Below are positions 48,699 through 64,000 of a DNA stretch of 64,000 nucleotides, piece after piece. The stretch is from Rhodomicrobium sp. (GTDB lineage Bacteria > Pseudomonadota > Alphaproteobacteria > Rhizobiales > HXMU1428-3). The DNA lies in assembly GCA_021604665.1 (NCBI GenBank), contig BQJK01000001.1, positions 956,419 through 1,020,418 of the forward strand, read 5' to 3'. The notes beneath the pieces are model-generated. The model was not told the origin of the DNA, did no database searches, and was given only the letters and a program-made list of their open reading frames with translations. The stretch's first letter is position 1. Every line of letters starts with the position of its first letter. The position numbers were made by a program, and so were the translations under genes.

Positions 48699-49127
48699 AT
48701 GATGACCACTAAAATTAGCTCAAAACTACTTAGAGTTGCCATGCTGGCATTTGTCTCGCTTGGTCTGTCCTCGCTAGAAGCCTCGGCAGATCAACATATG
48801 AAGGATGGCACGATCCCCAATCTCATTGGCACCTGGTCTGGCAAAAACAACACCATCTCAGATAAAAAAGGTTACCTCACCAGAGACAAAACCATAGAGA
48901 TAACAGAACAGAAAGACCGCCGCTTTAAGGGCATTTTTAAATATGCTGAAGGCACAGTGAAATTTTTCGGGGTCATCTATCCCGATAATCTCTCCTTCAC
49001 ATGGGTCTCTGAAGGCAGCCGCGGTTATAATCAGGGCCGCATATTAGGAAAGTCAAAAATCAGCGCCTGCTATGTTGAATCTGGCATCGATGCCACCGCT
49101 GGCTGCGCTGAGCTAACCCGCCAATAA
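48699..49127 (+). CDS. Small secreted beta-rich hypothetical protein (lipocalin-like signature)
   Basis: Signal peptide ending ASA, PNLIGTWSG, C-terminal Cys pair; AAGGAG SD. Confidence 0.75.
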   Translation: MMTTKISSKLLRVAMLAFVSLGLSSLEASADQHMKDGTIPNLIGTWSGKNNTISDKKGYLTRDKTIEITEQKDRRFKGIFKYAEGTVKFFGVIYPDNLSFTWVSEGSRGYNQGRILGKSKISACYVESGIDATAGCAELTRQ

Positions 49128-49295: not shown

Positions 49296-51491
<2,196 letters not shown>

Positions 51492-52502: not shown

Positions 52503-53234
52503 CTACTCAGCGACCGCTTCAAAAAGATCAGGATAACGCGCCTTAACTTCAGCCCGTTTCGCCTCAATAGCCGCTTCATTCGCCCGGTCCGTCGGCAAAA
52601 TTTTCAAACGCTCACGCACACGGCCAGGCCGGGTGGTAATTAATAAAACCTCTTCACCAAGTTCCACAGCTTCACGCATGTCATGGGTCACCATCACAGC
52701 GGTTATCGGGTTGTCTTCCCACAATCGGCGCACAAGCTGGCGCAGCCTCGAAGCGGTTGGTGCATCTAGCGAAACAAAAGGTTCATCAAGCAATAATAGA
52801 TTTGGTTTCGTTGCAAACGCCCGCGCAATGCCAACCCGGCGCGCCAGACCAAGCGACAATTCAGAGGGAAAATTATCAACCAGCTCAGTTAGCCCCATCG
52901 CCTCCATCAGCTGGCTAAATTCAGCCTCACCAAACGTTGGGTCAGCCCGGAGCATCACATTGTCCCGAACGGAGCGCCATGGCAAAAGGCGCGGCTCTTG
53001 AAACACAAATCCAATTTTCGGCGGGGTCTCCCACTCCACCTTGCCTTTATAATGCGGGTCCAGCCCGGCAAGTATTCTGAGCAAGGTAGATTTACCGCAG
53101 CCAGATGGGCCAAACAAAACAGTGAAACTGTTTTTAGTCAGGGTGAAATGCGTATCCTCAAGCGCTAAAATCTTACCGCCATTGGCACTCGTATATATTT
53201 TTTCGTCTATATGAACCTTAAGCAGGCTCTGCAC
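52503..53234 (-). CDS. ABC transporter ATP-binding protein, NitT/TauT family
   Basis: GPSGCGKST, variant signature LSLGLARRV, LLDEPF; GTG start overlaps permease end. Confidence 0.9.
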   Translation of the reverse strand: MQSLLKVHIDEKIYTSANGGKILALEDTHFTLTKNSFTVLFGPSGCGKSTLLRILAGLDPHYKGKVEWETPPKIGFVFQEPRLLPWRSVRDNVMLRADPTFGEAEFSQLMEAMGLTELVDNFPSELSLGLARRVGIARAFATKPNLLLLDEPFVSLDAPTASRLRQLVRRLWEDNPITAVMVTHDMREAVELGEEVLLITTRPGRVRERLKILPTDRANEAAIEAKRAEVKARYPDLFEAVAE

Positions 53235-53964
53235 GCCAACGTGTTGCATAACGCTCCCACGGTTGAATAAACACAATTTCAATCACCAGCATCACCGCAA
53301 TAAAAGCAACGGAATAAGCAAAGATCGCCGCCACATTGAAGAGCTGAAAATAAGTATGGAGTTGGAAGCCAACCCCATCAGAGCGGCCGATAAACTCAAC
53401 CACCAAAACAATCTTCCATATCAATGACAAACCAGACCGCCCCGCCGCCGCTAAAAATGGCTGCAACTGCGGAAAGATAATATGCTGATAGCGCTGCAAA
53501 TTCGTATAACGGAAACTAGCCGCCATCTCATCCAGCTCAGCACTGAGAGACCGCGCGCCCTCGCGCAGCATCACCGCCACATTCGGCACCTTATTGATAA
53601 CAACAGCAAGAATGGCCGCTGTCTCCGTCAGGCCGCCCCAGATATAGCATAGGAATATGATAACAAGAGCAGGCACATTGAGAAAGAACACAAGCCAGGG
53701 GTCAAAAATGCCATTGAATAAATGGCTCCGCCCCATAGCAAGGCCAATCACCGTGCCAAGCAACATAGCAATCACAAAGCTGGCCATAACCCGCCATAGA
53801 GTAATAAACAGATGATAGAATAAATCCCCGTTTTGCACCTCATCGATCAGCGTCATGAATACTTTTTCAGGGCCGGGAAATAACCTGTCATTCACCAGCC
53901 AGGCCACAACAAGCCACAGCACCAAAAAACCAACAATCGATAACAGAGGATAGAACCGCCGCAT
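53218..53964 (-). CDS. ABC transporter permease, NitT/TauT family
   Basis: Six TM segments, EAA-like loop LDEMAASFR, EFIGRSDGVG. Confidence 0.9.
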   Translation of the reverse strand: MRRFYPLLSIVGFLVLWLVVAWLVNDRLFPGPEKVFMTLIDEVQNGDLFYHLFITLWRVMASFVIAMLLGTVIGLAMGRSHLFNGIFDPWLVFFLNVPALVIIFLCYIWGGLTETAAILAVVINKVPNVAVMLREGARSLSAELDEMAASFRYTNLQRYQHIIFPQLQPFLAAAGRSGLSLIWKIVLVVEFIGRSDGVGFQLHTYFQLFNVAAIFAYSVAFIAVMLVIEIVFIQPWERYATRWRAEPA

Positions 53965-53966
53965 AA

Positions 53967-54995
53967 CTACTCAGCCTTTTGCTCGGTTTCAACCGGTTGA
54001 GAGATATCACCCGTCAGCCAGAAGGTACCAGGACTTAGCGTTTTGGAATTGCCCACAAGTTTGCGGCCTCCAAGTTCCACCAGTACATTAAAAAGCCTTG
54101 CAACATCCGCCCGCTCAACAACAAGCGGCCGCCTGAGAATACCTATGCGAAATGATTTTTTCAGCGCTTCAAATGTTGCCTCATCTTCAGCCTTCATACG
54201 GGGGCGAATTTCCTCCCAGATGGCTTCATCCTTATCAAGAATTGCAATAGCATCCTGAATAGCTGAGAGAAACCCTCTTATTTGATCTTCATTGGCAGCG
54301 GCCCATTTATCGTGAAAAGCAAAGCCAATAGCGACAGTCGGGCCAGAAGTGCCAAGTCCGGTCATCACATCACCAACAGATAAAAGTGAGCGAAAACCTT
54401 TAGCTTCCAAACGCGCACTAAAATGCCAAAAGTTCAGAATAGCATCAAACTCACCGCGGATCATTTTCTGTGTCAACAAGGGCGGCGCCCCGTAAACAGG
54501 TGTCACGATCTCAGCAAGATCAACGCCAATAGTTTGCTTGGCGTAAGCGCGAAGGAACAACCAGCTTTTATCAAGCGGACCACCGGCAACGCCGAGTGTT
54601 TTACCCTTTAAATCCTCAAGCGACTTAATCGGAGACTCTGCCGCCACCATCAAATGACCAACAGCTGAACTATAAGGCACCATGGCAAAATCTGCGCCTT
54701 CAGCACGTTGCCTCGATATCCAGGTCCAGTCAGTTGCAACAATATCAGCCGAACCGCCCTGCAGAGCAATCTTGGCCCCATTCGTGTTCGCAAGCGGAAT
54801 AACACTCAACTTAAAGTTATGCTTCTCATCAAGTTTGCGCAGCTTCACCGTGTCCAGAACCCAGTTAACCGTTCCAAATTTTAAAGTCGCAACTCTGAGG
54901 GCATCAGCTGCTTGAGCTGGATTATTGCAGGCACTGCCGAAGCTAAGACATAAAACAACTAGGATGAGAGAGGTTAATCGCAAAATTGTCGTCAT
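53967..54995 (-). CDS. ABC transporter substrate-binding protein, NitT/TauT family (subtype seen with PQQ-ADH / lanthanide-uptake loci)
   Basis: Signal peptide; KFGTVNW, DWTWISRQR, PYSSAVG, GGPLDKSWL, YGAPPLL, LNFWHFSARLE; subtype call from memory. Confidence 0.8.
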   Translation of the reverse strand: MTTILRLTSLILVVLCLSFGSACNNPAQAADALRVATLKFGTVNWVLDTVKLRKLDEKHNFKLSVIPLANTNGAKIALQGGSADIVATDWTWISRQRAEGADFAMVPYSSAVGHLMVAAESPIKSLEDLKGKTLGVAGGPLDKSWLFLRAYAKQTIGVDLAEIVTPVYGAPPLLTQKMIRGEFDAILNFWHFSARLEAKGFRSLLSVGDVMTGLGTSGPTVAIGFAFHDKWAAANEDQIRGFLSAIQDAIAILDKDEAIWEEIRPRMKAEDEATFEALKKSFRIGILRRPLVVERADVARLFNVLVELGGRKLVGNSKTLSPGTFWLTGDISQPVETEQKAE

Positions 54996-55153
54996 ATATA
55001 TAGACACCTATTCGATAGAATTTGTTATGTCTGAAGGGCTGAACGCCCTTTGCTGGCGGTCTTTTACTAATTTATTTAGCTTTATTTTTGGCCATAATTT
55101 TCAGACCAAACTTTTCTCTAGAGAGACCATGCTTCCTGTAACCACCTATCTTT

Positions 55154-55183
55154 AAACCCAGTCACTTAAAACCCAGTCACTTA
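55154..55183. repeat. Perfect 15-bp tandem duplication AAACCCAGTCACTTA x2
   Basis: 55154-55168 and 55169-55183, in the divergent promoter region. Confidence 0.95.
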
Positions 55184-55446
55184 TCATGATTGTCTAGTTC
55201 AAAACCATCATCACCCTAAAATGGATAGGGGTAGCACTGGAAATTGCACAACCACATATTACATATGCACCTAACGTTTATGCACTTATTAAACTGGTTA
55301 CGTAAAAACTGGCGTTAACTAACTTAAGGTTCAAGCCAGAATGGCTAATATAGACAGAGTGGCGAAACTATCCAGATGGTTGGCACATATGCCAACCCCA
55401 CTAGCCTCAATAATCAATAACCTAACGTAGGGGTCTTGAGAAAATA

Positions 55447-56154
55447 ATGAGAAACAAGATCTTAAGCCTATTCATCTTTATGATGGGGCTATTCGCAGCA
55501 CTTACCACACCGCTCCTCACAGCGCGGGCTGACGACACCTCAGAAAAGCAACGCCAAACCAACACCCCAAGCCTCAAAACCCCAAAGCGCGAATTAAAAA
55601 TCACAAAAGGTGCTGAGCCACCAATAATTTGGCACAAACGATACCGCCACATAGATAAAGTAACAGGGCTAAGAACCGCCTATTACCGTGCGGCGCTCCC
55701 CCCCAAAGTGCCCGGCGGCACACGAATAGATGTAAAACAGGCCTATGATCATTACAAAAACAAAGACGCGCTTTTTATTGATGTAATGGCCCACACAGGC
55801 ACCGGCCCGGACCCAATAGATGGCTATTGGCGGCTTTCAGAACCGCGAAGCAATATACCGGATAGCTATTGGCTGGCAGATGTTGGCACAGGCACCCTCA
55901 CACCTGAAATGCAGCACTATTATAAAGAGAACCTAAGGAAGATAACAGGCGGCGATAAAACAAAAGCGCTCATTCTCTATTGCACCGCAGATTGCTGGAT
56001 GGCGTGGAATGCCGTGCGGCGAGCGTCTCGCCTTGGTTACACAAATCTGCTCTGGTTCCCAGAAGGCAGCGACGAATGGAGCGCCGCCGGTTATCCATTA
56101 AAAAACTCTATCCCGATACCGCTGGACTTAGATGAAAACATAGAGGAAGAATGA
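55447..56154 (+). CDS. Exported rhodanese-like protein, PQQ-dependent catabolism-associated CXXCW type
   Basis: Signal peptide; YYRAALP..VPGG, FIDVM, IPDSYWLADVG, LYCTADCWMAWNAVRRA, WFPEGSDEW. Confidence 0.85.
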   Translation: MRNKILSLFIFMMGLFAALTTPLLTARADDTSEKQRQTNTPSLKTPKRELKITKGAEPPIIWHKRYRHIDKVTGLRTAYYRAALPPKVPGGTRIDVKQAYDHYKNKDALFIDVMAHTGTGPDPIDGYWRLSEPRSNIPDSYWLADVGTGTLTPEMQHYYKENLRKITGGDKTKALILYCTADCWMAWNAVRRASRLGYTNLLWFPEGSDEWSAAGYPLKNSIPIPLDLDENIEEE

Positions 56155-56384
56155 ATTCACATTCTTCAGCCTGGCCCCCAAATCATTTGGCAGCAGCCTT
56201 CAAACAAAACAGCTGGAAGATGAATCACATGCTGTTTTAGAGTTACAGCCATCACATTCACGTGAAGCATTCGACTTTACGCCAATATCAGAGAGCATTT
56301 AGCAAGCTCCGCGCTAGACCAGCTCGCTCCCCCCCCATAAACTTCATTACAATATTCTCAAATCTGCACACCACAACTGTGCAG

Positions 56385-56414
56385 AACACAACAATGCGTA
56401 ACACAACACTGCGT
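56385..56414. repeat. 15-bp tandem duplication AACACAACA(A/C)TGCGT x2 next to an 8-bp hairpin
   Basis: Units 56385-56399 and 56400-56414; TCTGCACA/TGTGCAGA at 56363-56385. Confidence 0.85.
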
Positions 56415-56654
56415 AATAAAGATACCAGCAGTGAAACCATACCTGGTCCCAGCACCGCATTAGGAACTGCCCTCTAAAGCATTGCGCAACCGACTTAACA
56501 AACAAATGAATGAGGCAACACAGAACCAAGCCACTACAGAGATAATTCACAGCCCCTCAAGGGCCGTAAGACAGCAAGTAAATAGAGATAAAACCACCAA
56601 GCTATCGCAACAATAAATAACAGGGCCAAAACAGGCCCATTGGGAGCATAATAA

Positions 56655-57263
56655 ATGACGACGCCCTCCACTATAATAAAGAGAAGATCAAAACGCCTGT
56701 TTCTCCCAGCGCTCGCCCTCCTGGCGGCGCTGAGTACCCTGCCAATAACAACAGCCTCCTTTGCAGCAGATGACACTGCAAGCGAAACAAAAAAAGTCAC
56801 CCTCATTGGCAAGGATGGCAGCCGCCTGGAAATTGCCAGCGTCACCCTTACAAAGACTGAGGAAGGCGAAAAAATCAGCATAAACTTCATCGAAGATCGC
56901 TTTTCAGAACATTTCCTCTCCATGCGGCCTTTCAAGTGCATAGATGGCGACCAAACCCTCTGTCACTTGCCCTACCCCTATAAAACCAAAGACATTATCA
57001 CCAAAGATAATTTGATGGACCTCGAATATAAGCTGCTCTTCATCCATAAGGGTGCCGGCGAATATGGCATTAACTTTTGGAATGGCGTTTATTATCGCCT
57101 AAAACGCGAACATGATGGCAGCTTCACAGGTGTCGTATGGGAAACAGATATGGACGAGCTTGCCGCCCCGCCGGAAGTAGAATACTCGCGCCCAATCGGT
57201 GGTGATGACCTTTCAGAAGGCGCTGAAGGAAAGCACCGCTATCCACTTGTAGAAATCAAATAG
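56655..57263 (+). CDS. Conserved exported protein of unknown function
   Basis: Signal peptide (RR-containing n-region); HFLSMRPFKC, DLEYKLLF, YGINFWNGVYY, ETDMDELAAPP motifs that I associate with PQQ-ADH neighbourhoods. Confidence 0.75.
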   Translation: MTTPSTIIKRRSKRLFLPALALLAALSTLPITTASFAADDTASETKKVTLIGKDGSRLEIASVTLTKTEEGEKISINFIEDRFSEHFLSMRPFKCIDGDQTLCHLPYPYKTKDIITKDNLMDLEYKLLFIHKGAGEYGINFWNGVYYRLKREHDGSFTGVVWETDMDELAAPPEVEYSRPIGGDDLSEGAEGKHRYPLVEIK

Positions 57264-58131
57264 CTTGATCGTCAAAGGTAATGAATATAGCAGCAGCAAC
57301 TGGGATAACTGACGGCAAGTTGGCACAAAGCAACCGCACTTTCATGTCATTATATGCAATTATAACATATGTGACCAAGCGCTAGGGGCAAACACTATAC
57401 CTTCGCATTAAAGCCCCCTTTAGAGCCTCGTCGAGCCTGTTGAGTTATGCTAACATCGACAACAAGGAACCATGATATTCATGTGTTTTCATGCCTGTAG
57501 CTTCTAAAACATTTGGTGCAGAATCAATCGCTTAAAACCTCACCGGCAAGGTAAAATTTAAACCTCCTTACCGATGAACAGAGCCCGGATTGAGACCAAA
57601 CCATTTTCAGACCTTGTTTGTATGAGACTACAAAACAATGAGACCATGAAAGTGTATTTAAAAGAGTTCCAGTTACTAGTCTGTAATTCATCCACGAAAG
57701 GGAGGTTGTCATAAATAACCCTAAAGGGCTTACTCACTAAATCTCAGAATTTCCCTATAGCTCATCATCTATTATTGTTCCCAATCGCTTGGGGCCACAA
57801 ATACCGGCCCTGCTAACAAGCCACAAAGAACACTGGATTGAACTGAGCTGGATTTATTTAGCGTCTGCTAAATTAAGAGCCGTGATTTTAGTGATAGACC
57901 TGACAAAAACGTCAAAACGCATGTGGTTATTTAAAGACATATAACAAAGGCAGTCGCCGCTATTACTGAGCAATCAGCTAAGCACCGGCACCATAAAGCC
58001 TTGAGACCTCTCAATAAAAAGAAGATGAAAAAACAGAATTTGGCCGTCGCTAGCATAACAGCTGCTGGGGCCAAACTGTACATAAGAGAGAAGTTGCTTT
58101 TAAAGCATAGAAAAAATTAAGGAGGGCGCTC

Positions 58132-58608
58132 ATGCAGCTCGCGCTGGTATTAGATCCCGCAAAGTGCACATCGTGCAAACAATGCGAAATGGCTTGTGCC
58201 TACGAGAACGAACAAACATTCAACCCGGCTAAATCCCGAATTCGTATTTTCGATTTCCATGAAGATGGCCGCTTTGTACCCTACACCTGCACCCAGTGCG
58301 ATGAAGCCTGGTGTCAGCAAGCCTGCCCGGTTAACGCCATCACCACAGACCCTGCCACCGGCGTTAAGCTGGTACATGATAATCTCTGCGTTGGCTGTAA
58401 AGTCTGCACAATCGCCTGCCCATTCGGCACCGTGAATTACAATGCAGCAACCGGCAAAGTAATCAAATGCGACCTATGCATGGGCGATCCAGCCTGCGCG
58501 AAAGCCTGCCCGACTGGCGCCATCACCTATTCAGATGTTGAGCAAGCAGGGTTTGACAAAATGAGAGCCTGGGCCGCCAAAACGGATTCCGGCGCACAAG
58601 CAACGTAA
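58132..58608 (+). CDS. aorA: 4x[4Fe-4S] polyferredoxin subunit of tungsten aldehyde oxidoreductase
   Basis: 16 Cys in four ferredoxin motifs; C-terminal helix GFDKMRAWAAK; AAGGAGG SD. Confidence 0.9.
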   Translation: MQLALVLDPAKCTSCKQCEMACAYENEQTFNPAKSRIRIFDFHEDGRFVPYTCTQCDEAWCQQACPVNAITTDPATGVKLVHDNLCVGCKVCTIACPFGTVNYNAATGKVIKCDLCMGDPACAKACPTGAITYSDVEQAGFDKMRAWAAKTDSGAQAT

Positions 58609-58672
58609 ACTATATGCGCCCATACCTGGCACAGCTTACGGCAAATAAAATTTCGTCAAGGGAGATGTCCTC

Positions 58673-60526
58673 ATGGCTTGGACACGAAAAGTACTAAGAA
58701 TTAATCTCACTTCAGGTGAGATCACAACTGAGCCCCTAAATATGGAATGGGCTCAAAAATATCTCGGTCAGCGCGGTCTGGCGACAAAATACCTAGTGGA
58801 AGAAACAGACCCGAAGGTTGATCCGCTTTCACCAGATAACAAAATGATCTTCGCAACCGGCCCGCTTACCGGCACATGCGCCTCAACAGGCGGCCGTTAT
58901 TCTGTCATCACCAAAGGCCCGCTTACAGGCGCAATCGCCTGCTCCAATTCAGGCGGTTACTTCGGACCAGAGCTTAAATTCTCTGGCTATGACATGGTCA
59001 TCCTTGAAGGCAAATCACCAAAACCGGTTTACCTCTCAATCTTTGATGACAAAGTAAAACTTCGCGATGCGTCTCATCTTTGGGGCAAATCTGTGTGGGA
59101 TACTGATGATGCTATTAAAGCTGAAGTCCAGGATCCGCTCGCCCACGTTGCCGCCATTGGCGTCTCCGGCGAAAAAGGTGTGCTCTACTCTTGCATCGTC
59201 AACAACAAGCACCGGGCAGCCGGTCGCTCAGGTGTTGGTGCTGTAATGGGCTCCAAAAACCTGAAGGCAATTGTCGCCAGAGGGTCAAACGGTGTCACCG
59301 TTGAGCAGCCACAGGAATTCTTTGCAGCCACTGATGCCGGCAAAAAAGTTCTGAAAGAGAATGCCGTGACAGGTGAAGGCCTCCCAGCTTTCGGCACGCA
59401 GGTTCTAATGAACGTCATCAACGAAACAGGCGCCATGCCAACCCGCAACTGCCGGGATGTTCAGTTTGAAGGCGCGCATGACATTTCAGCTGAAGCCATG
59501 GCAGAGCCGCGCCGCTCAGATGGCAAAGCTAACCTTTCAACAAACCAGGGCTGTTTTGCCTGCACCATCGCCTGTGGTCGTGTTTCCACTATCGACCCGC
59601 AGCACTACACCCTGCAAGGCGAAGGCAAGGATCAATATAAGCACGCCTCAGGTGGCCTTGAATATGAAGCAGCCTGGGCCCTTGGTTCCGCCACAGGTGT
59701 TAACGATCTAGACGCGCTGACATATGCTCAGTTCCTTTGCAACGAACATGGCCTCGACCCGATTTCACTCGGCGCGACCATTGCAGCAGCTATGGACCTC
59801 TATGAAGAGGGTGTCATCAACCAGGATATCACTGGTGGGCTAGACCTGCGCTTCGGCAATGCAAAAGCATTGACAGAAGCAGTAGAGCTAACCGGCACAG
59901 CTGAAGGTTTTGGTGTCGAGCTTGGCCTCGGCTCTGCCCGCCTATGTGCCAAATATGGCCGCCCGGATCTATCCATGACGGTTAAAAAGCAGGAATTCCC
60001 TGCTTATGACCCACGCGGCATTCAAGGCATGGGCCTCACCTATGCCACTTCCAACCGTGGTGCTTGTCACCTTCGCTCCTACACAGTGTCATCAGAAGTG
60101 CTTGGCATTCCTGAAAAAACTGACCCACTGGTAACTGAAGGTAAGGCCGCCCTTGTGAAAGCCTTCCAGGACGCCACAGCCGCTGTCGATAGCGCAGGTA
60201 TCTGCGTCTTCACGACCTTCGCCTGGACAATGGAAGACATTGCCCCTCAGGTGAATGCAGCTTGTGAAGGCAATTGGTCCGTTGATGCACTGATGGAAGT
60301 CGGTGAACGCATCTGGAATCTTGAGCGTCAGTATAATATGGCCGCTGGTATCCTCGGCGACCAGGACACCCTACCGCAGCGTCTTCTTAAAGAAGCCGCT
60401 AAAGTTGGCCCGGCTCAAGGACTGGTGAATGGCCTCGATAAAATGCTGCCAGAATATTACGAGCTTCGTGGCTGGTCTACAGATGGCACACCAACAGGTG
60501 AAACGATCTCTCGTTTAGGCCTGTAA
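58673..60526 (+). CDS. aorB: Tungsten-containing aldehyde:ferredoxin oxidoreductase catalytic subunit (AOR/WOR family)
   Basis: KGPLTGAIACSNSGG, HRAAGRSGVGAVMGSKNLKA, CFACTIACGR, EYE, GLDPIS, VKKQEFPAYDPRG, SNRGACHL, YYELRGW. Confidence 0.95.
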   Translation: MAWTRKVLRINLTSGEITTEPLNMEWAQKYLGQRGLATKYLVEETDPKVDPLSPDNKMIFATGPLTGTCASTGGRYSVITKGPLTGAIACSNSGGYFGPELKFSGYDMVILEGKSPKPVYLSIFDDKVKLRDASHLWGKSVWDTDDAIKAEVQDPLAHVAAIGVSGEKGVLYSCIVNNKHRAAGRSGVGAVMGSKNLKAIVARGSNGVTVEQPQEFFAATDAGKKVLKENAVTGEGLPAFGTQVLMNVINETGAMPTRNCRDVQFEGAHDISAEAMAEPRRSDGKANLSTNQGCFACTIACGRVSTIDPQHYTLQGEGKDQYKHASGGLEYEAAWALGSATGVNDLDALTYAQFLCNEHGLDPISLGATIAAAMDLYEEGVINQDITGGLDLRFGNAKALTEAVELTGTAEGFGVELGLGSARLCAKYGRPDLSMTVKKQEFPAYDPRGIQGMGLTYATSNRGACHLRSYTVSSEVLGIPEKTDPLVTEGKAALVKAFQDATAAVDSAGICVFTTFAWTMEDIAPQVNAACEGNWSVDALMEVGERIWNLERQYNMAAGILGDQDTLPQRLLKEAAKVGPAQGLVNGLDKMLPEYYELRGWSTDGTPTGETISRLGL

Positions 60527-60537
60527 CAATTAAAAAA

Positions 60538-60569
60538 GCGGCCCCAGCCATAAGCGCGGGGCCGTTTTT
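60538..60569 (+). terminator. Terminator-like hairpin between aorB and aorC
   Basis: GCGGCCCC-N12-GGGGCCGT followed by T4. Confidence 0.65.
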
Positions 60570-60776
60570 CAACCTAATAAATACATAAGAAATAGCGATA
60601 GGTTGTTCACCTCTTAACAGAAGGCAAAAATGCCTAAAGAGGTCTTTGAATATAGGGGAAGTGTTCTTTTAACTGGCCGGGAATAGGACGCCTGGGCAAA
60701 ACCATCTTGCCAGACGACCCGGCCCCCTCATTCAAAAGACGGTTCAACCGACAACATATATTAAAGGAATGCTGCC

Positions 60777-62033
60777 ATGCATTATCTTGTTTTGGGGGCC
60801 GGCCCTGCTGGCGTAACAGCCGCGGAAACCCTACGCAAACATGACAAATCCGCCAAAATCACTCTCCTCGGCGGCGAGCCGGAACCACCCTATTCTCGCA
60901 TGGCCATCCCCTATTATCTGATTGAAAAAGTCGGTGAAGACGGCACATATCTCCGCCAGACAGAAGGCCATTATGAACAGCATGGCATTGATTATGTCCA
61001 TGGCACTGCTGTTGCGCTCCAGGGCAAGGCAAAACGCCTGAAGCTAGAAGATGGCTCCGAACTCCAGTATGACAAACTACTGATCTGTACTGGCGCCAGC
61101 CCAATCTCCCCGCCGGTCCCGGGCCTTGATCGCCCCGGCATACATAATTGCTGGACCCTGGAAGATGCCCGCCACATCGCAGAGCTCTCACAAAAAGGCG
61201 ACCCTGTCGTACTAATGGGCGCAGGCTTCATCGGCTCCATCATCCTCGAAGCGCTCGCCCTTAAAGGCGTAAACCTAACAGTGGTTGAGATGGGAGACCG
61301 CATGGTCCCACGCATGCTGGATGAAACAGCCGGCAACATGCTGAAAGATTGGTGCATAGATAAAGGCGTCCGCGTCCTGACCAGCACCCAGATTTCAGAA
61401 GTCACAGATGGCTCTGAAGGCTTAACAGTTCACACCAAAGGCGGCGAAGCGCTAGATGCAAGATTATTGGTTGTCGCCGCGGGCGTGCAACCCAATATCA
61501 GCTTCCTTGCCTCAAGCGGTGTAGAAATCGACCACGGCATCATCGTTGATCAATATATGCGCACCAGCGTACCAGATGTTTACGCCGCAGGTGATGTTTG
61601 CCAGGCAATCGACTTCTCAACTCAAAAAGCTGAAATGCTGGCCATTCAGCCTGTAGCCGTAGAGCATGGCCGCATTGCCGCACAAAACATGGCCGGCAAA
61701 CCAACCCCCCATGAAGGCAGCCTGAATATGAACGTGCTTGAAGCCATGGGCCTCATCACAGCCTCCTTCGGTCTCTGGATGGGCGTTGAAGGCGGCGATA
61801 GCTGCCGCATGCATGACCCGGAGAACAACCGCTACTTACGGCTGGAGTTTGATGGCAACAAACTGGTGGGCGGCCAATCTGTAGGGTTAACCGAACATGT
61901 CGGCATGTTGCGCGGCCTCATCCAAACCGAGCTGGACCTTGGCGAATGGAAGAATAAGCTCATGAAATCACCAGAGCGCCTACCAGAAGCATATGTCGCT
62001 GTAGCCCAGCACAACTTTAACATTTCAGCTTAA
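60777..62033 (+). CDS. aorC: FAD/NAD(H)-dependent oxidoreductase subunit of AOR
   Basis: GAGPAG FAD motif, GAGFIG NAD motif, YAAGDV; AAGGA SD; position after aorB. Confidence 0.88.
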   Translation: MHYLVLGAGPAGVTAAETLRKHDKSAKITLLGGEPEPPYSRMAIPYYLIEKVGEDGTYLRQTEGHYEQHGIDYVHGTAVALQGKAKRLKLEDGSELQYDKLLICTGASPISPPVPGLDRPGIHNCWTLEDARHIAELSQKGDPVVLMGAGFIGSIILEALALKGVNLTVVEMGDRMVPRMLDETAGNMLKDWCIDKGVRVLTSTQISEVTDGSEGLTVHTKGGEALDARLLVVAAGVQPNISFLASSGVEIDHGIIVDQYMRTSVPDVYAAGDVCQAIDFSTQKAEMLAIQPVAVEHGRIAAQNMAGKPTPHEGSLNMNVLEAMGLITASFGLWMGVEGGDSCRMHDPENNRYLRLEFDGNKLVGGQSVGLTEHVGMLRGLIQTELDLGEWKNKLMKSPERLPEAYVAVAQHNFNISA

Positions 62034-62086
62034 TAATAAGGCTTTAAAAGCATAATAAGCAGTGATTACACACTGCACTTTCTCTC

Positions 62087-62123
62087 ACCGCCTCAGGGCA
62101 TTGCCCTGTTGGCGGTTTTTTTT
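62087..62123 (+). terminator. Intrinsic terminator after aorC
   Basis: ACCGCC-T-CAGGGC-ATT-GCCCTG-TT-GGCGGT followed by a long T-run. Confidence 0.85.
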
Positions 62124-62269
62124 AAGTTAAACTCTCTAAGGAACCGACTTGTAAATCTCATAGTTTTTTCAGAGCTTTATCATTTTCTGTTGAGTTTAAG
62201 TCACGACATCTACCCATTTTCGTTTAAAAAACACAATCCTGCCTCAATAAGCTTCCCCCCCTTGCAAAT

Positions 62270-62285
62270 GTTAAGTATCCATTAA
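62270..62285. promoter_or_regulatory. CtrA-consensus box upstream of the acidic beta-barrel gene
   Basis: GTTAA-GTATCCA-TTAA (TTAA-N7-TTAAC on the minus strand), 70 bp before the ATG, adjacent to TTGCAA. Confidence 0.45.
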
Positions 62286-62355
62286 AGTCAACGTATCATG
62301 GCGTTGCTACTTTAAAACAAGCAGCCTGTTACCATTACTTTTTGGGGGATAATTA

Positions 62356-63180
62356 ATGAATAAATACGCAATCGCATCACTCACATGCGCCTCTTTGCTG
62401 CTCGCAGCAAATCCAGCCTACGCCATCAGCCTTGAAGAAGCTGGCGTCGAAAAAGGCGAAGTCGAACTTCAGTATGAAGCAACCTACACTGATAAAAACG
62501 CCGAAGGTGCCTATGAGCATGAAGAAGAAATCGAAGTTCAAATGGGCCTGACAGACTGGTTGCTGCTCACCGTTGGCTTCGGTTTTGAGGAAGAGGAAGG
62601 TGAACGGGATTTTGAATTTTCCGAACTTGAGGGCTCAGTTCAAATTGAACTGGTTGATCCTGAAAAAGGTGGATTTGGATTTGCCCTTCTCGCTGGCTTT
62701 AGCAAAGAGTTCGCCGCAGAATCGGGAGAAGAGGACGAAAACACCTACAAGATTGGTGCCATTGCCGAGCACCACTACAATAAGTGGCTGTTCAGAGGCA
62801 ATCTGTTTTACATCTCCGATATTGACGGCGACGGCGAAGAAGAATTTGATGGCGTAGAATATGCCTATCAAATCAAATACGACGTTAGCGAAAAGCTCGG
62901 CGTCGGCGTTGAAGGCTACGGCACTCACCAGGAATTTGATGACCCAGGCGAAGATGATGTTGACCAGCACATGGTTGGCCCGGTTCTCTACTATAGCTTT
63001 GAACGTGGAAATGATACCAGCCGCCACGCGTCCATTAAAGATGTAGCTGAAATTGGCGGCGAAGACGGTGATGACGAAGATGAAGGCATCGAATTCGAGC
63101 TTCAGGCCGGCGTGCTGTTTGGCACAACGGACGACACCGCTGATGTGACTTATAAATGGGGCCTTGAGATCGAATTCTAG
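62356..63180 (+). CDS. Highly acidic outer-membrane beta-barrel protein (putative porin)
   Basis: Signal peptide ending AYA, alternating amphipathic strands, C-terminal YKWGLEIEF; about 69 Asp/Glu versus about 15 Lys/Arg in 274 aa (hand count). Confidence 0.8.
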   Translation: MNKYAIASLTCASLLLAANPAYAISLEEAGVEKGEVELQYEATYTDKNAEGAYEHEEEIEVQMGLTDWLLLTVGFGFEEEEGERDFEFSELEGSVQIELVDPEKGGFGFALLAGFSKEFAAESGEEDENTYKIGAIAEHHYNKWLFRGNLFYISDIDGDGEEEFDGVEYAYQIKYDVSEKLGVGVEGYGTHQEFDDPGEDDVDQHMVGPVLYYSFERGNDTSRHASIKDVAEIGGEDGDDEDEGIEFELQAGVLFGTTDDTADVTYKWGLEIEF

Positions 63181-63218
63181 GTTTTTCTCCTGGCACAGTA
63201 AATTTTCCTGGCACAGCC

Positions 63219-63254
63219 AAAAGCAGCAAGTCATCTCCGGCTTGCTGCTTTTTT
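63219..63254 (+). terminator. Intrinsic terminator after the porin gene
   Basis: AAAAGCAGCAAG-N10-CTTGCTGCTTTTTT. Confidence 0.85.
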
Positions 63255-63323
63255 GTTGGCTTATTGTTTATTGAGTTCTACGCGCCCAGCCATTAAAATC
63301 GGATGAAATGGAGAGACTTGATA

Positions 63324-63575
63324 ATGGATGTAACCCTGAAACTATATGCAACCCTAACGCCCTTCCTGCCCTCAGGTGCGGAGAAAAACCAGATTTCTAT
63401 AGATGTCTCAGAAGGCAGCTCAGTCATGGACATTGTAGATAAATACCAGCTGCCAAAAGAAAGCTGCCACCTCATTCTGGTAAATGGCAATTACACGCCT
63501 TTAGCTTCTGCTGACCAGAAAATCCTTGTAGAAGGTGACACCCTGGCTATATGGCCCCCCGTTGCCGGTGGGTAG
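63324..63575 (+). CDS. moaD: MoaD/ThiS ubiquitin-like sulfur carrier (AorD-like)
   Basis: LILVNG, GDTLAIWPPVAGG C-terminal di-glycine; GGAGA SD before ATG 63324. Confidence 0.9.
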   Translation: MDVTLKLYATLTPFLPSGAEKNQISIDVSEGSSVMDIVDKYQLPKESCHLILVNGNYTPLASADQKILVEGDTLAIWPPVAGG

Positions 63576-63855
63576 CCCATATCCCCATTCTATATATATT
63601 GGCTATTACCGATATAAAGCGGCGGTTTAAAAAACGAGAGGGTTAAGAATCTAACGGCTTTAAAACAACTGGGCACCCCTGGTTTTATTAGAGAGCTCTC
63701 AGAAAACCCCTCATTTTCTAAGAATAAGCCGTTTTATTGCATTTTTTAGGCTCAGATTCTGTTTTATGCCTAAGAGCTGATGCGCTATATTACAGACAAG
63801 TTAAAACACAGAGCCAAAGCCATTATGCTAAGGCTCACCAACGGGAGATAGCATT

Positions 63856-63945
63856 ATGAAAAATTGGACAACACCACAAGTTTCTGAAACTGAAACAGGC
63901 ATGGAAGTAACTTCTTATATGCCTGCTGAACTTGACCGCGCATAA
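63856..63945 (+). CDS. pqqA: PQQ precursor peptide PqqA (29 aa, MKNWTTPQVSETETGMEVTSYMPAELDRA)
   Basis: GGGAG SD 8 nt upstream; W-x-x-P leader and GMEVTSY core with the E-x3-Y pair; too short for the ORF track. Confidence 0.9.
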   Translation: MKNWTTPQVSETETGMEVTSYMPAELDRA

Positions 63946-63968
63946 GCGATTAAGTTTCTATATATGAA

Positions 63969-64000
63969 AACCGGCGGTTGAGAGAAATCTCCCGCCGGTT
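63969..64000 (+). terminator. Hairpin after pqqA (terminator or stabilising stem)
   Basis: AACCGGCGG...GAGA-GAAA-TCTC-CCGCCGGTT; any T-tail lies beyond the window edge. Confidence 0.7.

Follow-up and report, generated by a model that had tools for sequence, protein, structure and literature searches.

Gene content of the locus

The 64,000-nucleotide stretch of the Rhodomicrobium sp. genome analyzed here (the window; G000:C1:956419-1020418) carries in its last part an operon for an aldehyde oxidoreductase (AOR) of the tungsten type, aorABC, whose surroundings are the subject of this study. What is distinctive is the architecture: the aor genes enclose a clade-specific β-barrel gene and are themselves nested between accessory genes of pyrroloquinoline quinone (PQQ)-dependent alcohol dehydrogenases (PQQ-ADHs) on one side and a duplicated pqqA followed by pqqBCDE on the other. 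The genes that an initial annotation had listed here, namely a NitT/TauT-type ATP-binding cassette (ABC) transporter, a rhodanese, an exported protein, aorABC, a barrel protein, a MoaD-like gene and pqqA, are all present as intact open reading frames (ORFs) where it had placed them, confirming that the locus is real, and the gene calls rest on curated family cut-offs rather than on patterns that chance could yield. Positions below are those of the window unless a contig is named, and L-numbers denote the individual loci or contigs compared.

The three enzyme genes lie on the forward strand. The poly-ferredoxin subunit is encoded by aorA (58132..58608), with 16 cysteines in four [4Fe-4S] motifs and no export signal, the tungstopterin catalytic subunit by aorB (58673..60526), and the subunit for flavin adenine dinucleotide (FAD) and nicotinamide adenine dinucleotide (NAD) by aorC (60777..62033). 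AorB aligns end to end with chain A of the AorABC structure from Aromatoleum aromaticum EbN1 (PDB 8C0Z; residues 1-617 against 1-615, 950 bits) and contains the AFOR_N and AFOR_C domains (PF02730, 275.6 bits; PF01314, 452.2 bits), while AorA and AorC (Pyr_redox_2, 199.5 bits) match chains C and E, likewise end to end, with 232 and 409 bits. Judged by these alignments, AorABC are orthologues of the Aromatoleum enzyme, a Class III tungsten-containing oxidoreductase of clade 87: the same three subunits occur in the same gene order, the four cluster motifs of AorA are found in both, and a MoaD-like gene lies downstream in both. AorB is approximately 69% identical to the tungsten enzyme, judged via L065, a close relative of A. 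aromaticum, and aorB is the sole AOR-family gene in the genome. A cytoplasmic location, NAD linkage and a broad aldehyde range would be carried over from the characterized enzyme.

The MoaD/ThiS-like gene (63303..63575, forward strand) encodes 90 residues with a GG end and has weak matches to MoaD and SAMP1. The order aorA-aorB-aorC with a MoaD-like gene behind it proved to be a conserved module in a set of 80 species-level AorB loci of Alpha-, Beta- and Gammaproteobacteria, a homologue coming after aorC in most of them, and the A. aromaticum operon reads aorABCDE, D and E both being MoaD-like putative maturation factors (PMC6365974). The gene is therefore aorD, not a co-located cofactor supply. 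The initial annotation had seen both cofactor supplies at this locus, but the one for tungsten comes down to aorD, a standard part of aor operons. Where A. aromaticum has two MoaD-like genes, a single one is seen here, set apart from aorC by the barrel gene. An aorE-like query from L066 gave no match in the clade loci L011-L013, in a search that did not take in the window.

Between aorC and aorD lies the gene for a predicted acidic outer-membrane β-barrel (62356..63180, forward strand), a protein of 274 residues with a signal peptide, a C-terminal phenylalanine and 25% aspartate plus glutamate, which matches the Pfam family Phenol_MetA_deg only marginally (22.7 bits against 22). Neither this insertion nor the flanking PQQ accessory genes and pqqABCDE are features of the A. 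aromaticum aor operon, and the hosts differ as well, the one here being an aerobic bacterium of the Hyphomicrobiales from the sea and the other a denitrifying betaproteobacterium.

On the right, pqqA (63856..63945, forward strand; 29 codons; TIGR02107, 34.8 bits against 20) carries the E-x3-Y core. A second copy encoding an identical 29-residue product follows about 500 bp downstream, roughly 400 bp past the window end (G000:C1:1020772-1020858; L001:2773-2859). The remaining biosynthesis genes, which the initial annotation had correctly placed outside the window, begin about 590 bp beyond its end on the flanking contig, and in profile searches all exceed their equivalog cut-offs (PqqB 396.9 bits against 245, PqqC 358.7 against 240, PqqD 72.6 against 46, PqqE 553.8 against 381); pqqE is followed by an alanine racemase gene (alr) and then by housekeeping genes. 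The tandem pqqA pair is also seen in L012, L096, L101, L105 and L106, and a third pqqA, 96% identical, lies 820 kb away in the same genome (G000:C1:194917-194994).

The left half of the block comprises a transporter, a rhodanese and an exported protein. The transporter genes are on the reverse strand: an ATP-binding subunit of the NitT/TauT type (52503..53282; PF00005; 75-79% identical to that of relatives), whose best NCBIfam matches are taurine/sulfonate ATPases, all under cut-off; a permease (53218..53964; PF00528), SsuC/SaoP-like and also under cut-off; and a periplasmic substrate-binding protein resembling NMT1/SsuA (53967..55007; PF09084, 39 bits). The rhodanese (55447..56154, forward strand) belongs to TIGR03865, the family named ‘PQQ-dependent catabolism-associated CXXCW motif protein’ (170.2 bits; cut-off 128.05); it has a signal peptide, which points to the periplasm, and a C-TAD-C-W motif (C-x3-C-W), and the genome holds two copies. 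The exported protein of 202 residues, here called exp202 (56655..57263, forward strand), is a single-copy gene without a Pfam or NCBIfam family; none of its 402 homologues is annotated. Its AlphaFold2 model is all-beta and of high confidence (pLDDT 87), and a fold search with this model gave no meaningful match in the PDB (best TM score about 0.3). Invariant residues of the family include two cysteines and several aromatics. The 868 bp separating exp202 from aorA (57264-58131; 440-720 bp in relatives) contain no convincing ORF, RNA family or promoter match.

Conservation of the block in related genomes

The gene order ABC transporter, rhodanese, exp202, aorABC, barrel, aorD, pqqA(A)BCDE, alr is kept in at least eight diverged genomes, those of the window, L011-L013, L096, L101, L105 and L106, of which L096 is a cultured isolate (Hyphomicrobiales bacterium 4NK60-0047b, NBRC 116602). 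These genomes are far apart, the identity of alr between them (51-55%) corresponding to family-level divergence, and exp202 and the barrel protein are similarly variable (48-66%). AorA, AorB and AorC nevertheless remain 83-92% identical (AorA 89-92%), which indicates that the enzyme is under strong constraint. In the AorB tree the sequences of this group form one clade (support 100/100).

The barrel protein has only 36 homologues and is clade-specific, its gene lying between aorC and aorD in the window and in every relative with sequence for this part of the block (L012, L013, L096, L101, L105 and L106). The insert at this position differs in L105 (6880-8703) and L106 (9001-10772): one of the two has an additional exported protein of 607 residues with two EF-hand-like loops (DIDNNG and DKNGDG) between aorC and the barrel gene, and the other has two tandem barrel paralogs, which together hint at a metal-related role for the insert.

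An outgroup contig (L098) carries the ABC transporter, rhodanese, exp202 and a Sel1 protein beside pqqEDCBA with no aor genes. Most simply, then, a PQQ module was already in place when aor arrived, and on this comparison the operon was probably inserted into an older arrangement. Just left of the block in one close relative (L012:1513-4113) lies a divergent member of the PQQ-ADH family, above the TIGR03075 cut-off, which lacks both the Cys-Cys pair and D-x-D, adjoins a Rieske protein and has no orthologue in the genome of the window.

Accessory genes of PQQ-dependent alcohol dehydrogenases

The identity of the left half of the block becomes apparent from the contexts of its members elsewhere. 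Nine contexts of exp202 were read; in five the gene is divergent from a PQQ-ADH gene, and in the others it stands beside aorA. The five (Ruegeria, Thalassovita and three metagenomic contigs) are ped/exa-like clusters that also hold cytochrome c, Sel1, ABC-2 exporter, propeller, and PedA1-like and MoxJ-like binding proteins, together with a FIST/PAS-kinase/LuxR-type regulator set, and the Ruegeria cluster adds an NAD-dependent aldehyde dehydrogenase (NAD-ALDH). In marine Alphaproteobacteria exp202 usually sits between the PQQ-ADH gene and its cytochrome c. An NMT1-type ABC system follows exp202 in one PQQ-ADH cluster and a rhodanese in another; a transporter of this type is found inside the PQQ-ADH cluster of L104 and beside pqq in L098. 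The presence of exp202, the rhodanese and the NMT1-type transporter in such clusters identifies the left half of the block as PQQ-ADH accessory genes, and it marks all three as unstudied accessory factors of these enzymes.

Compared with the ped/exa clusters themselves (Pseudomonas putida KT2440 and P. aeruginosa, and the roseobacter loci L094 and L097), the block has the CXXCW rhodanese family in common, an ABC importer, and pqq biosynthesis genes close by, and it shares exp202 with the roseobacter members. Unlike them, it has no PQQ-ADH, cytochrome c550, NAD-ALDH or sensor/regulator genes; its ABC system is of the NitT/TauT type, whereas ped clusters have PedA1A2BC; and the aldehyde step would fall to a tungsten enzyme where ped/exa clusters use an NAD-ALDH (PedI/ExaC; Aldedh in L094).

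Recurrent linkage and genome-level co-occurrence

Linkage of aor to PQQ-system genes arose independently in several lineages, with different partner genes. In a separate deep gammaproteobacterial AorB clade (among L053-L078), 12 of 14 rows show such a link. In eleven of these loci the genes that diverge from aorA encode a TIGR03866 propeller (319.7 bits; cut-off 287.3) and a PedA1-like fragment, which at 130.6 bits stays under its cut-off, and in 4 of the 12, three of the eleven and L074, whose upstream flank is cut off, pqq genes follow 6-8 kb downstream. The likeness to the block in the window is that aorABCD(E) is flanked upstream by accessory genes of the PQQ system and, in some loci, downstream by pqqEDCB; the differences are that the accessory genes are the propeller and the PedA1-like fragment in place of the rhodanese, exp202 and the NitT/TauT transporter, and that the gammaproteobacterial operons contain no internal barrel and belong to an AorB clade of their own. 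In a member of the Magnetovibrionaceae (L095), aorCBA occupies the slot of the ADH in roseobacters, between FIST/kinase genes and exp202 with cytochrome c. Weaker links are seen in Azospirillum, where a gene for a c-type cytochrome immediately precedes aorA and FIST/kinase genes are in the vicinity, and in L015, with a PedH-like ADH cluster 3 kb upstream of aorA and an unrelated transpeptidase gene between them. Two sets of apparent links were discarded: ADH-like tblastn matches downstream of aor in Rhodospirillales loci are the housekeeping gene for BamB next to Der, and pqqE matches in L049 and L064, at 32-35% identity, were taken as other radical S-adenosylmethionine genes and were not counted.

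To place these loci in a broader frame, we considered an even sample of 400 genomes across the Alphaproteobacteria, in which 24 have an AorB-like gene and 71 pqqC. The two co-occur more often than expected, with pqqC in 12 of the 24 carriers as opposed to 59 of the 376 others (odds ratio 5.4, Fisher p = 2e-4); when the count is limited to orthologues with 62% identity or more, pqqC is found in 11 of 18 genomes and in 6 of 11 families against a background by genus of 18% (binomial p = 0.007). These p-values are rough, as sampled relatives are not independent. Physical adjacency behaves differently: aorB is near pqqC in none of the 12 sampled genomes that have both, and in three complete ones the genes are 0.7-1 Mb apart. 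The expectation that adjacency would reach beyond this genome thus held for the diverged relatives that keep the block but not for the class at large, and the sampling indicates that adjacency to pqq is a trait of particular clades while co-occurrence, like the linkage to ADH accessory genes, extends further.

Dehydrogenases and metal-related genes elsewhere in the genome

The genome (2.9 Mb, 98% complete) contains five members of the methanol/ethanol family of PQQ-ADHs above cut-off and two weaker ones. At the metal site five of the seven read W-D-Y-D, which contains the lanthanide D-x-D motif, one reads WDFS (calcium type), and one, a quinohaemoprotein, reads WDYT. Among them are an XoxF5-like enzyme (1068 bits to XoxF 6OC5), a PedH-like enzyme (854 bits to 6ZCV, a quinoprotein ethanol dehydrogenase from Pseudomonas which we take to be PedH) and a PedE-type enzyme, so that the PQQ dehydrogenases foreseen in the initial annotation, some of them of the lanthanide type, do exist in this organism. 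Only two full-length NAD-ALDH genes were found (C3:66205 and C1:753755), neither of them near any PQQ-ADH. Two haem-copper oxidases show that the organism lives aerobically.

As regards molybdenum and tungsten, the genome encodes ModA, two MoeA proteins and one TupA-like binding protein (L099:5095-7133; G000:C4:161094-163132). The latter does not amount to evidence for a complete tungstate importer, since neither a permease nor an ATPase adjoins it; its gene is convergent with that of a helix-turn-helix protein carrying a molybdopterin-biosynthesis-like domain. Of the metal genes that the initial annotation had in view, moeA is present in the genome, while the locus holds no tungstate transporter and the only TupA-like gene is an orphan under cut-off. 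In Hyphomicrobium-type loci (L018-L021, L079 and L089) an ABC ATPase match lies directly upstream of aorA, and L019, the one locus of this set that was checked, has a TupA-like binding protein upstream as well, an arrangement that fits a tungsten dependence of this AorB branch.

Proposed function and alternative explanations

We think it somewhat more likely than not that the island, conserved in a clade of aerobic marine Hyphomicrobiales, represents an AorABC operon set into an older PQQ module, and that the enzyme oxidizes the aldehydes made by PQQ-ADHs in place of the NAD-ALDH of ped/exa clusters. PqqA-E would provide the PQQ that equips periplasmic XoxF-, PedH- and PedE-type enzymes and the quinohaemoprotein encoded elsewhere in the genome; these quinoproteins would convert alcohols to aldehydes in the periplasm, and the aldehydes would enter the cytoplasm to be oxidized to acids at the tungstopterin of AorB. 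Electrons would then pass through the [4Fe-4S] clusters of AorB and AorA, five in all, to the FAD in AorC and on to NAD+, so that AorABC would take the place held by the NAD-ALDH in the classical clusters, with aorD serving in maturation of the tungsten cofactor. The compartments in this scheme are those predicted from signal peptides. That some functional link exists between aor and the PQQ-ADHs is likely, because the linkage to PQQ-system genes recurs in other lineages.

Enzymes of this type had been described in the initial annotation from facultative anaerobes; aerobic or denitrifying mesophiles had already been named as the hosts of this AOR branch, which tolerates air (Arndt et al., 2019). 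The A. aromaticum AOR tolerates air in extracts and accepts aliphatic aldehydes as well as formaldehyde.

Several observations weigh against the coupling of AorABC to alcohol oxidation. The block contains no ADH, cytochrome c550 or regulator gene; the window has no TIGR03075 match, and a genome profile search places the nearest PQQ-ADH 171 kb from aorB, in keeping with its expected position outside the window. The spacing of 120-870 bp between genes speaks for more than one transcription unit, probably several, and signals of co-regulation were not evident: matches to the sigma-54 consensus in the window number 52 against 50.6 expected, with none upstream of aorA; a scan of 51.4-64 kb against Rfam (E up to 1) gave no molybdenum cofactor riboswitch and no credible RNA; and no motif shared among the six intergenic regions was kept, a weak TTTTCAGACC-like repeat in two of the six being dropped because it is not conserved in relatives. 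The TupA-like protein reaches 236 bits against a cut-off of 400. Finally, half of the sampled AorB-like carriers are without pqqC, no adjacency occurs in the 12 with both, and only in one clade of Alphaproteobacteria and one of Gammaproteobacteria does aor adjoin the pqq operon.

The missing ADH, the large intergenic gaps and the sampling result would be accommodated if the genes were neighbors without pathway coupling, AorABC being a general cytoplasmic aldehyde detoxifier or part of another catabolic route and its position being kept by inherited synteny. About 60 of the 80 AorB loci have no PQQ-related neighbor, and the demonstrated role of the AOR in A. aromaticum, in phenylalanine degradation, is unrelated to PQQ. 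We nevertheless regard this explanation as unlikely, though it deserves to be taken seriously: several lineages have each acquired a link between aor and PQQ-system genes on their own and with differing partners, the synteny is kept at a divergence that has reduced alr to 51-55% identity, and genome-level co-occurrence is enriched.

A narrower version of the coupling would have AorABC mainly oxidize formaldehyde derived from XoxF, replacing a missing tetrahydromethanopterin pathway. Fae and Mch of that pathway were not found in the 98% complete genome, the XoxF5-type enzyme is at hand, and the A. aromaticum AOR oxidizes formaldehyde at 4.1 U/mg. The same role has been proposed for Methyloversatilis, where growth on methanol raised AOR transcripts 2.6-fold over the level on methylamine (PMC5023235). 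Against it stand a glutathione-dependent formaldehyde dehydrogenase encoded approximately 2.3 kb from xoxF, the rank of formaldehyde among the poorer substrates of the characterized AOR, and the additional presence of PedH- and PedE-type ethanol dehydrogenases, so that this version appears improbable to us.

Operation as a reductase (from acid to aldehyde, or linked to H2 or NADH), or with molybdenum in place of tungsten, and in either case unrelated to ADH products, is very improbable: the A. aromaticum AOR can reduce acids with strong reductants or H2 (PMC9295118), and this genome has ModA and no full tungstate transporter that we could find, but the organism is aerobic and acid reduction requires very low potentials, in the related Hyphomicrobium loci aorA is immediately preceded by genes for a TupA-like protein and an ABC ATPase, and AorB combines its similarity to the tungsten enzyme with an end-to-end match to 8C0Z.

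Relation to previously proposed routes

We return to the preferred reading, the oxidation of PQQ-ADH products by AorABC. The initial annotation knew of no description of such a pairing, but two-step routes of this kind had been put forward before. In Methyloversatilis universalis FAM5 a tungsten aldehyde enzyme has been predicted to act on formaldehyde from PQQ-dependent methanol oxidation, the 2.6-fold difference in transcripts being that of this enzyme (PMC5023235), and in Cycloclasticus a PQQ-ADH followed by a tungsten AOR has been proposed for short alkanes (PMC12510462, citing Rubin-Blum 2017). Both follow the same logic of a periplasmic quinoprotein and then a tungsten AOR, and both are reconstructions from genomes, transcripts or proteomes in which, as far as could be read, no gene linkage is reported; here the case is built on the physical linkage of the genes, which recurs. 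PQQ goes unmentioned in a 2026 classification of tungsten oxidoreductases, and in the literature on tungsten AOR with PQQ, XoxF or lanthanides we found no paper on the linkage of aor and PQQ genes.

Tungsten enzymes are usually regarded as a feature of anaerobes. If the coupling holds, they would have a part in the mainstream aerobic oxidation of alcohols, and possibly of methanol, by marine bacteria; a further trace-metal need would be added beside that for lanthanides, the small number of NAD-ALDHs in these genomes would be explained, and an oxygen-tolerant AorABC would be of biotechnological interest. More tentatively, and with the balance leaning somewhat against it, AorABC might be the dedicated and co-regulated partner of lanthanide/PQQ ADHs in many aerobic Proteobacteria, having repeatedly displaced the NAD-ALDH in ped-like clusters and, in one lineage, taken over even the slot of the ADH. 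Alcohol oxidation in the marine bacteria considered here would then need PQQ, lanthanide and tungsten at once, and aerobic oxidizers of alcohols and methanol would have a hidden need for tungsten in order to grow.

Other features near the block

The conserved block is bordered on its left by a gene for an exported protein of 142 residues (48699..49127, forward strand) with a signal peptide and no Pfam family, and homologues at the same position are found in L011 and L012 (61-70% identical). The catalase-peroxidase gene katG (49296..51488, reverse strand; TIGR00198, 1165 bits), which the initial annotation had noted just upstream, is indeed there, but it is an insertion specific to this genome, outside the conserved block: only here does it sit between the 142-residue gene and the ABC genes, and it was rejected as a member of the system, the same position in L011-L013, L096 and L101 being without katG. 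A SoxY-SoxZ fusion and a protein of the metallo-β-lactamase fold recur beside PQQ-ADH clusters (L015:2624-4430; L102:16199-17952), and in the genome of the window the same pair adjoins the second CXXCW rhodanese (L100:4185-7417; G000:C2:162184-165416).

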